DNA of 64,000 nucleotides from Xylographa opegraphella (lineage: Eukaryota), in contig JALDZX010000012.1 in NCBI GenBank assembly GCA_022813865.1, forward strand, positions 248,001 to 312,000, read 5' to 3'. The notes under the pieces are model-generated. The model was not told the origin of the DNA. It saw only the letters and a program-made list of their open reading frames with translations, and ran no database searches. This document shows positions 27,514 through 29,528 of the stretch, one piece after another (positions within the stretch are counted from its first letter, which is position 1; every line of letters begins with the position of its first letter). A program made the position numbers and the translations under genes.

Positions 27514-29528
27514 ATGGACCCGGTGTCTATCGTCGGTCTTGCGTCGTCTGTTCTGAGTATTGTAAGTGTAATTGCTAAAAATGTCAATGCGTTGTCCACC
27601 TTGCAAGCCAAGTATCGAAATGCCGATCTCAGCGTCTTTCTTCTCATCGGACAGCTCTCGACACTCAAGGCTGCTCTCGGCCAGATATCCGAATGGATCA
27701 AGGCAGAGGGCCTGGCAGCACAATCCGAGCATCTCCAGCTTATTCAGGACCTCCAAGTAGCGCTCAACGGCTGTCAAGCCCTGATATCGATCCTAGACGA
27801 CCGGGTAGATCAACTGGCAACCAAGGAGGGCTCCGACAATCTGAAAGTTCAGGGCAAGATCGTCTTTCTCTGGGAAGAACAGGAGTTAAATGTGTACGTG
27901 ACACATTTGAATAATCAGGTCAATGCTCTCACTTTGCTTCTCTCGGCCATCCATTGCCGATCTTCGTCTCAAGAGCGGACTTTGCTGCAGTCTTTCGAGA
28001 GTCGCCAGTTAATGCAGCGGCTAAGAGACGACACTTCTTCTCTCCTGTGGCTCCGGGATACGGAATCCATCCTCTCCAGAAAGACCATGTCGACTTTCAA
28101 TTCAAAGTTATTGGAGACCATTTTTGACTTTGATGGCGAGGTCTTTAACTCCAAAGTCTATCAAGGAGCACTCAGATCAAACATGAAGCAAGTGCTGTCG
28201 CACAATGTATCAGGGTCTCCAAGGCCGAGTGGTCTTGCCACTCAACAGACAAACGACAATTTTCCTTCAGAAAATGACGATGCCAGGGCAGACACAGAGA
28301 CAATAAAGGCACCATCGGTTACAGATGGTATTCTGGTAACGACAGACTTCCATCAAGACATCAGTCTGTATACGCCATCTCCTAGAAAAGTATCACTCTG
28401 GTCTAGACTATCCGAACAAATAGTGGCATGAAAGAAGAGTCAGTTTAAGACACGTAATGAGACTATCGCCTTTACAGAAATGGAGCAGCAGCAAAACCCG
28501 CTGCCGTGGAATGGCAAGACGTTGATCTTAGGGACCTCAGAGAGCGGGAAGTCCACACTTCTCAAATCCTTAAAGCTTCATCTGGAAGGCTCATATACTC
28601 TCGAAGAGCGGGTATTGTTCAGAGAAATCATCTTCAGTAATACCGTCCAAAGCATGCGCGTTATATTAGAAGCAATGGAGTTTCTTGATATATGTCTCGA
28701 GGATAAAAGGAACGAGTACTATGTCCAAACAATATATATGCAGCCAGCACAATTTGATAGTGAGCAATTACCGGAGGATGTTGTGGATGCTATCGAAGCC
28801 TGTACAACGATCTTGGAGTTAAGGAATGTCTAAAGCGAGCGAGAGAATATCAACTGAACGACTCTGCTGAATAGTAAGCTTATGGCTTCGAACAATATCA
28901 GAGTGACCCACTAACGCTGATTACCAGCTACTTTCGCTCGATCATAGCGCTCAGCAACCCGAGCTATTTTCCTACAGATCAAGACATACTTCGGTCCCGA
29001 GTCAAGACCACGGGGATTACAGAGACTTCCTTCGTCGCACCTGTGCAGAGTTTGTCGGTGTTTGATTTTGGTGGCGTAAGGAGTGAGCGCAAGAAGTGGA
29101 TTCGTTGTTTTGAAAACGCCGGCACCATTCTATTCACTGTCGACATCAGCAGCTATGACCAGCTCCTTTGCGAAGACGAAACGGTCAATCGTATGCAGGA
29201 GGCCTTGGTATTGTTCGATTCTGTCGTGAACAGCAGGTGGTTCGTGAAAACCGCGATCGCTCTGTTCTTCACCAAATACGATAAGCTGGCCGCGAAACTG
29301 AAAGCCAGCCCAATGAAGAATTATTTCCCGCAATTTGTGGGGGGCGATGATCTCGAGGAGGCTACCGCGTATATTACTCGCAGATTCGTGTCTCTGAACG
29401 AAAACCACGCCAAACCCATCGCCGTTCACTACACCAGCATCGTCGACAATCCGCGGAAACCAGGGAAGATGGCCATTGACTTCCTACAGCGAACCACGGA
29501 TGACGATTGCCCCGTGTTCACCGGGTAA
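27514..29528 (+). pseudogene. HeLo-like (fungal STAND N-terminal-type) domain fused to a G-protein alpha domain; disrupted in this assembly
   Basis: MDPVSIVGLASSVLSI...NALTLLLSA N-terminal helical domain; then GTSESGKST, EYQLNDSAEY, DILRSRVKTTGI, DFGGVRSERKKW, LFFTKYD. In-frame TGA at 28429-28431, 1-nt deletion at about 28800, intron 28874-28927. Confidence 0.7.

Follow-up and report, generated by a model that had tools for sequence, protein, structure and literature searches.

We analysed a 64-kb window of the Xylographa opegraphella genome (64,000 nucleotides; assembly GCA_022813865.1, contig JALDZX010000012.1, positions 248,001 to 312,000 of the forward strand). Positions 27514-29528 (+) of this window hold a single gene. 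It joins a 225-amino-acid (aa) N-terminal helical domain (the N-domain), a variable linker of about 100 aa and a complete G protein alpha subunit (G-alpha). On balance, we read the locus as the recently inactivated X. opegraphella copy of a conserved Pezizomycotina family, in which a HeLo-like/SesA-type helical bundle and a variable linker precede a G-alpha derived from group I.

The ATG of the gene is preceded by an in-frame TAA and opens a 305-aa open reading frame (ORF; 27514-28431), which is closed by a TGA. This ORF and the next one (28480-28833) share one frame (the start position mod 3 is 1 in both), and the TGA alone lies between them. The same frame is open again from 28432 and carries the P-loop. 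The initial annotation of this DNA had stated that the two ORFs share a frame, and this is confirmed: the flanks of the TGA are colinear with intact relatives. The motifs quoted there (P-loop, RVKTTG, DxGG, TKYD and N-terminal sequences, FDFDGEVFNSKVY among them) are all found in the window translation. The start reads MDPVSIVGL..., without the MG of a myristoylation site, again as first described. The proposed order of helical domain, linker and complete G-alpha is borne out by the Pfam profile PF00503. It matches the gene in three colinear pieces of its 333 positions, at 20-116 (66.1 bits), 119-142 (14.5 bits) and 144-319 (209 bits, E 1.3e-61), which lies far outside chance. The pieces at 28450-28797 (66.1 bits) and 28929-29525 (209 bits) exceed the PF00503 cut-off of 48.8 bits. 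A frameshift and an intron of 54 nucleotides (nt) are two features beyond those listed initially (Table 1).

Table 1. Features of the fusion gene, in positions of the 64-kb window.
Feature	Position	Strand	Basis or remark
Whole gene: HeLo-like N-domain, linker and G-alpha-like domain	27514..29528	+	Two exons in intact relatives; stop and frameshift here
N-terminal helical domain, aa 1-225	27514..28188	+	Pfam, alignments, AlphaFold2 (AF2) model
PF17111 match, aa 7-163	27532-28002	+	Pfam
Hydrophobic N-terminal helix, aa 3-21	27520..27576	+	19-aa Kyte-Doolittle mean 2.09
Poorly conserved linker	28189..28503	+	Alignments
In-frame TGA within the linker	28429..28431	+	Translation, alignment; identical in read-derived contig
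P-loop GTSESGKST (G1 motif)	28531..28557	+	Translation, alignment
Frameshift site, one base missing	28798..28800	+	Translation, alignment, Pfam colinearity; identical in read-derived contig
True intron, 54 nt, phase 2 (GTAAGC...CACTAAC...CAG)	28874..28927	+	Splice signals; relatives' ORFs, metagenome tblastn
Switch I RVKTTG, Arg and Thr retained	28998..29015	+	Alignment
Switch II DFGGV, Val at the catalytic Gln (Q204 of G-alpha-i1)	29064..29078	+	Alignment
TKYD at the NKxD position (G4 motif)	29271..29282	+	Alignment
TSIV at the TCAT position (G5 motif)	29433..29444	+	Alignment
Stop codon TAA of the gene	29526..29528	+	Translation

The fusion is conserved. A search of longer proteins with the 305-aa N-terminal ORF yielded 19 proteins of 535-730 aa, and all 19 contain PF00503. 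A profile built from seven N-domain sequences matched 65 proteins, 58 of which carry PF00503 in their precomputed Pfam lists. Hence intact homologues with the same architecture, proposed as a check in the initial annotation, do exist. It had also considered that the two parts might always be separate in relatives; instead, PF00503 follows the N-domain in 19/19 and 58/65 of these proteins. The fusion is already in public databases, under generic names such as 'Fungal N-terminal domain-containing protein' or 'G-protein alpha subunit-domain-containing protein'.

The family spans four classes of Pezizomycotina: Lecanoromycetes (Xylographa, Calogaya, Lasallia, Circinaria, Bacidia, Squamulea), Eurotiomycetes (Aspergillus sections Flavi and Nidulantes, including A. 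flavus and A. oryzae, and Talaromyces), Leotiomycetes (Botrytis, Sclerotinia, Stromatinia, Glarea, Venustampulla, Cudoniella) and Sordariomycetes (Cytospora, Diaporthe, Xylaria and others). It is patchily distributed, gained and lost among lineages. Of the seven profile matches that lack PF00503, three (P0298, P0302 and P0307) are truncated models in which a trace of the P-loop region remains. Two others, from Rasamsonia and Talaromyces (P0320 and P0324), combine the N-domain with about 700 aa of ankyrin repeats. In P0325, a protein from JGI, a PNP_UDP phosphorylase domain precedes the N-domain, an architecture typical of fungal NOD-like receptor (NLR) N-termini. The last, P0326, is unassigned.

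Metagenomes repeat the pattern. Of 38 loci found with the N-domain profile, 15 have a G-alpha downstream on the same strand, about 0.15-1.1 kb away (about 0.4-0.5 kb in 12), and in most of these 15 the tblastn match breaks at the position of the window's intron. Full-length N-domains with 36-39% identity occur in L016 and L019-L021, and in the two of these that were scanned, L016 and L019, neither a G-alpha nor another Pfam domain was detected downstream. In several loci lacking a G-alpha (for example L016, L017, L019 and L025) we found no informative Pfam domain downstream of the N-domain, except for a weak SH3 match in L025. NACHT or NB-ARC domains were detected neither in the gene nor in the 24 window ORFs scanned nor in the Pfam lists of the 65 profile matches. 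One further protein, P0305 of Paramyrothecium foliicola (1184 aa, annotated 'short chain dehydrogenase atnD'), combines short-chain dehydrogenase/reductase domains with PF00503 and probably represents two merged gene models.

The X. opegraphella copy carries two lesions. At the TGA the window reads ...SLWSRLSEQIVA, stop, KKSQ..., where intact relatives read ...QIVARKKSQ.... The residue in this column is Arg in 11, Ser in one and Lys in one of 13 close relatives. At the second lesion ...PEDVVDAIEA in frame 1 continues as LYNDLGVKECLKRAREYQLNDSAEY (LYNDLGV...) in another frame, starting at 28800. This frameshift falls in the helical domain of the G-alpha. Across this site the Pfam profile stays colinear (116 to 119), and every close relative has exactly one residue between AIE and L. 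In seven relatives from other assemblies (P0284-P0290), the first-exon ORFs (450-501 aa) run uninterrupted from Met1 to the intron, through both lesion sites. They end at the position of the 54-nt intron, which is also the break point of the tblastn matches in the metagenome loci. The intron divides a Tyr codon in ...NDSAEY/YFRS..., and the last exon then extends to the TAA.

Among Xylographa species, identity is 86-91% in the N-domain, 57-67% in the linker and 69-80% in the G-alpha. The divergence of the window copy from three congeners is in no region greater than that of the congeners among themselves. The lesions are therefore young. The window gene is probably a recent pseudogene, and X. 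opegraphella can probably not produce the full-length protein but at most a 305-aa product of N-domain and linker. A second copy of the gene was not found within the 64-kb window by tblastn. We considered repeat-induced point mutation as the origin of the stop and discarded it, given just one transition, a normal base composition and no repeat copy in the window.

The gene could alternatively still be functional in X. opegraphella, either as a truncated 305-aa protein or spliced as in the deposited 627-aa model (P0001, 'guanine nucleotide-binding protein subunit alpha [Xylographa opegraphella]'). This model is 100% identical to the query parts, and its exons map to 27514-28389, 28444-28800 and about 28881-29525. 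The two gaps, 28390-28443 and about 28801-28880, restore one frame. The N-domain ORF is also intact, and divergence is no higher than in relatives. Nevertheless we find a functional gene improbable. The first gap (54 nt, with GTATCA as its 5' site) drops the TGA together with 18 codons that are coding and conserved in relatives. The second skips the conserved LYNDLGV...EYQLNDSAEY block, and the true intron is read as protein. We regard the deposited model as a gene-caller artefact with implausible introns; the locus merits annotation as a pseudogene or re-modelling. That both lesions are sequencing or assembly errors in an intact gene is very improbable: the missing base adjoins a short C run (GCC/CTG), but one lesion is a substitution and not an indel, and a contig built separately from the reads of a public DNA run carries both lesions and is identical at 2,201/2,201 bases (0 differences, word depth 164), which speaks against mis-assembly and not against strain polymorphism because the run may be the assembly's own source.

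The N-domain (about 225 residues) is the best-conserved region of the protein. It begins at Met1. Near-invariant in the family are M1, P3, S5, the LIGQLSTLKAAL block, LNNQVNALNLLL, DDTSSLLWLRD and FDFDxE, and the conserved tail reads ESR..DDTSSLLWLRD...FDFDxEVF.S..Y. An AF2 model based on 51 sequences is all-helical (predicted local distance difference test 76, predicted template modelling score 0.65), with long helices at residues 4-33, 39-65, 74-103, 122-146 and 161-192.

The initial annotation called this N-terminus HeLo-like and expected PF17111 beside PF00503 in a Pfam scan. PF00503 is found above its cut-off. PF17111, formerly named Helo_like_N and now PigL_N, is at the edge: it matches the window N-terminus with an E of 4.7e-5 and 23.3 bits, under the curated cut-off of 27.2. 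It recurs at E<=0.01 in 13 of the 19 family rows, in none of them better than in the window, and at 29.5 bits one relative, P0298, exceeds the cut-off. Among Atlas clusters outside G-alpha, the nearest contain PF17111 or SesA (score 0.96; 207/256 shared features). In the metagenome loci L029-L033 and L035-L037, more distant relatives of the N-domain (26-31% identity across residues 1-118) stand at the head of long ORFs, and the three that were scanned (L030, L032, L036) all combine SesA, NB-ARC and ankyrin. Judging by these predicted domains, the three are bona fide NLR-type proteins. Thus the HeLo-like assignment of the initial annotation stands as a kinship with PF17111 and SesA domains, while the window itself stays below the family threshold.

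According to the accessible text of one paper, PF17111 is a HeLo-like, MLKL-related effector domain of fungal NLR systems (PMC9815663). HeLo domains and their HeLo-like (HELL) counterparts are described, in the accessible text of another, as membrane-targeting executioners that reach membranes through their first helix (PMC12881547). With the HELL and SesA domains of fungal NLRs and with HELLP-type executioners (PF17111, PF17107) the window domain shares its N-terminal position, a hydrophobic first helix, a bundle of long helices and the weak but repeated PF17111 match, and its remoter kin head SesA-NB-ARC-ankyrin proteins. Unlike them, it precedes a G-alpha and not a nucleotide-binding oligomerization domain (NOD) or an amyloid motif. 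It also has an extra conserved tail (DDTSSLLWLRD...FDFD) past the matched profile, and it remains below the cut-off.

The C-terminal half of the protein is about 62% identical to canonical fungal subunits of 353 aa named gpaA or GpaA/FadA, and 69-71% identical to its congeners. The closest solved structures are G-alpha-o and G-alpha-i1 (E about 4e-49). FadA belongs to group I, as stated in the accessible text of PMC5869405. We computed a careful IQ-TREE phylogeny of 49 rows and 353 columns, with 14 fused proteins, 20 named group-I-type subunits and 15 unnamed canonical representatives as outgroup. It omits 11 long or redundant unnamed rows, the fragmentary P0008, P0013, P0016, P0017 and P0019, and family members fetched later. 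The 14 fused rows form one clade (ultrafast bootstrap [UFBoot] 97, Shimodaira-Hasegawa-like approximate likelihood ratio test [SH-aLRT] 97). A branch with support 96/84 unites this clade with Pezizomycotina group I, apart from Taphrinomycotina and early-diverging fungi. The fused clade has long branches, and its place is beside Pezizomycotina group I as a sister, not inside it. A quick tree of 60 rows gave the same result. Terminal branches measure 0.15-3 in the fused rows versus 0.01-0.08 in group I, and with several fused rows long-branched the relationships within the fused clade are unsure. A comparison with G-alpha groups I to III, suggested in the initial annotation, is thereby answered in part: the placement is next to group I, in a tree whose outgroup is unnamed and in which groups II and III carry no labels. 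As far as sequence phylogeny goes, the tree shows that the family G-alpha originated when a group I subunit (FadA/GpaA, G-alpha-i-like) was duplicated; it descends from group I without belonging to it.

We tallied the G-alpha motifs over the 61 rows with a G-alpha part, some of them fragments, after dropping P0320, P0324, P0325 and P0326. The P-loop Lys is kept in 53/60 rows and the Gly of DxxG in 45/47. The catalytic Gln is present in only 1/46. At the first position of NKxD, 24 of 46 rows have T, 17 have H and 1 has N, and the switch I Arg is R in 12/43. The alpha-N helix is absent, with only about 12 conserved residues before the P-loop, and the extreme C-terminus is unconserved even within Xylographa. 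Compared with fungal group I G-alpha (FadA/GpaA/GNA-1), the family has the full fold of Ras-like and helical domains, but it has neither the MG lipidation start nor the alpha-N helix, and it has an N-terminal extension of about 330 aa. In the window, Val replaces the Q204 equivalent, TKYD stands for NKxD and TSIV for TCAT, and the C-terminal tail is unconserved among congeners. At the level of motifs, the alignments show that the family G-alpha keeps nucleotide binding signatures and that four features are gone: the catalytic Gln, the lipidated N-terminus, the alpha-N helix and a conserved tail for receptor coupling. Established G-alpha biochemistry, applied to these motifs, suggests that nucleotide binding is probably kept and intrinsic hydrolysis probably lost. 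Classical cycling with receptors and G-beta-gamma seems unlikely for such a protein.

Two members of the family may have been described before. Aspergillus oryzae and A. flavus have a 'fourth G-alpha', GaoC, which has a Gln-to-Ser change, is predicted to be inactive and is functionally unstudied, according to the accessible text of PMC5869405. The same text reports D, E and K for its P-loop glycines and 'only a G_alpha domain' (PMC5869405). Both species have family members (P0291 and P0306), and P0291 reads DASGS, which matches the Gln-to-Ser change of GaoC. Unlike the published description, P0291 has GSSKSGKS and an N-domain, and its identity with GaoC could not be confirmed. The A. flavus and A. 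oryzae members may be GaoC; the published motifs fit in part only.

What could such a protein do? We tentatively propose that, in the intact relatives, the GTPase-dead G-alpha would latch the helical bundle in a way that depends on a nucleotide or a partner, as the pseudokinase does in MLKL. Release of the latch would free the N-terminal helix to engage membranes, in signalling or in cell death. A cell-death switch is a plausible candidate function for the family. The ideas of the initial annotation that the G-alpha would take the place of the NACHT/NB-ARC switch, or would serve as an integrated decoy, are likewise putative. Four observations lead us to favour an effector plus sensor over a simple anchor: conservation is higher in the bundle than in the G-alpha, the bundle also pairs with ankyrin, PNP_UDP and NB-ARC, the G-alpha evolves fast, and the gene is gained and lost among lineages. 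A wider version of this idea, which we hold to be rather doubtful, is that Pezizomycotina possess a non-NLR all-in-one switch. In it a G-alpha-i-derived pseudo-GTPase would guard and release a HeLo-like executioner, as latch or as decoy, under birth-and-death turnover, with the window as a fresh loss. A predicted complex of the N-domain and the G-alpha part of P0002 with GTP and Mg scored 0.00, which is evidence neither way.

MLKL, with its four-helix bundle, brace and pseudokinase, shares the logic of a membrane-acting bundle, a linker and a catalytically dead nucleotide-binding domain; in the family these elements are predicted from sequence and model. In the family the C-terminal regulatory domain is a G-alpha and not a kinase fold, the structural match lies within the noise of helical bundles, and we saw no sign of a RIPK3-like activator. 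The relation to MLKL is an analogy of design only.

Several points weigh against our reading. The N-domain stays under the PF17111 cut-off in the window and in all scanned relatives except P0298. In structural comparisons, MLKL (4btf_A) matches the N-domain model with Z 9.5 and a root mean square deviation of 2.2 A over 100 residues (Z 9.2 for a first model), which is below the noise level of about Z 13 quoted for helical models and ranks eighth, tied with unrelated, generic bundles. A Foldseek search of the PDB with both N-domain models returned nothing at E<=0.001, and the N-domain profile had 0 matches to PDB sequences at E<=10. The comparison is compatible at most with kinship to a HeLo/MLKL-type bundle. 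We also know of no mode of oligomerization of a G-alpha like that of a NOD domain. The 64-kb window contains no NLR, amyloid-motif or other immune-type gene, and the neighbours are housekeeping genes. For the lesions, strain polymorphism adds to this list.

The main rival reading is an ordinary signalling role. In plant extra-large G proteins (XLGs) an impaired-motif G-alpha-like domain stands behind a long N-terminal extension and is linked to immunity; XLGs carry a nuclear localization signal and a Cys-rich region. The N-terminal extension of the fungal family is unrelated, and the origins are independent. By analogy, the family could be an atypical G-alpha whose N-domain only takes over from the lipidated alpha-N helix as membrane anchor or scaffold. 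It would modulate ordinary G-protein signalling, for example by sequestering G-beta-gamma, regulator of G protein signalling (RGS) proteins or effectors, with no role in cell death. Members from Xylographa, Calogaya and Circinaria preserve both switch I and switch II (RSERKKWIxCFE) well, which suggests a conserved switch-binding partner. The group I origin of the G-alpha, the locus without NLR context and the now neutral name of PF17111, PigL_N, point the same way. However, the N-domain is the most conserved part (86-91% versus 69-80% for the G-alpha), and a folded bundle of 225 aa exceeds the needs of an anchor. The N-domain subfamily is also fused to ankyrin and PNP_UDP, its remoter kin head NB-ARC NLRs, and the alpha-N helix, part of the G-beta-gamma interface, is missing. 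We therefore judge an XLG-like role unlikely, if worth keeping in mind.

An integrated decoy is a special case of the latch or sensor idea. Here the G-alpha would mimic group I, so that toxins or effectors directed at G-alpha-i-type proteins bind or modify it and trigger the HeLo-like domain. A group I paralogue that keeps its fold and switch regions where catalysis is no longer needed would suit this role. So would its faster evolution than that of group I, and the patchy distribution and loss of the window copy are typical of immune-type genes. Some G-alpha-modifying toxins, however, target the catalytic glutamine, and it is this residue that the family has lost. The accessible texts of PMC9815663 and PMC12881547 mention no fungal integrated decoy outside NLRs. 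We give the decoy little chance.

We return to the latch and its possible meaning. A full-text literature search (subscription journals and supplements excluded) found no paper that brings a HeLo or HeLo-like domain together with a G-alpha. In their accessible parts, PMC9815663, on fungal NLR effector domains, and PMC12881547, on fungal regulated cell death, make no mention of 'G-alpha', 'G protein' or 'GTPase'. If the proposal is true, it links heterotrimeric G-protein subunits with membrane executioners of the HeLo/MLKL type, both well studied but never connected. Fungal cell-death domains would then be controllable by a switch that is neither a NOD domain nor an amyloid motif, and fungi would have their own equivalent of the MLKL design, with a heterotrimeric G-protein subunit as building block. 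The family may also account for the unexplained 'fourth G-alpha' of A. oryzae and A. flavus. Among the fungi that have it are Aspergillus oryzae, A. flavus, Botrytis and Sclerotinia, which are tractable and of economic importance, and because of this presence in tractable fungi the idea is directly testable. The X. opegraphella locus alone has a lower biological weight, since it is a young pseudogene with a wrong deposited gene model; the interest lies at the level of the family.

Pfam scans of 24 ORFs identify the neighbours in the 64-kb window as a Sen1 helicase, Mrs2, a WH1 protein, an ERCC4 nuclease, Chs5, a C5-DNA methyltransferase, an amidophosphoribosyltransferase and an isopropylmalate synthase. 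The Sen1 gene is probably split by an intron or a frame change: two adjoining long ORFs at 14429-21125 (+) carry its SEN1 N-terminal, beta-barrel and helicase domains. A long ORF at 44867-47014 (-) has a C-5 cytosine DNA methyltransferase domain (PF00145, E 7.7e-29), of a kind involved in fungal genome defence. Directly upstream of the fusion gene, at 25030-26178 (-), lies a 382-aa ORF without a Pfam match. Its start is signal-like, it contains repeated modules with Cys and a Ser/Gly-rich tract, and its C-terminal segment is hydrophobic.

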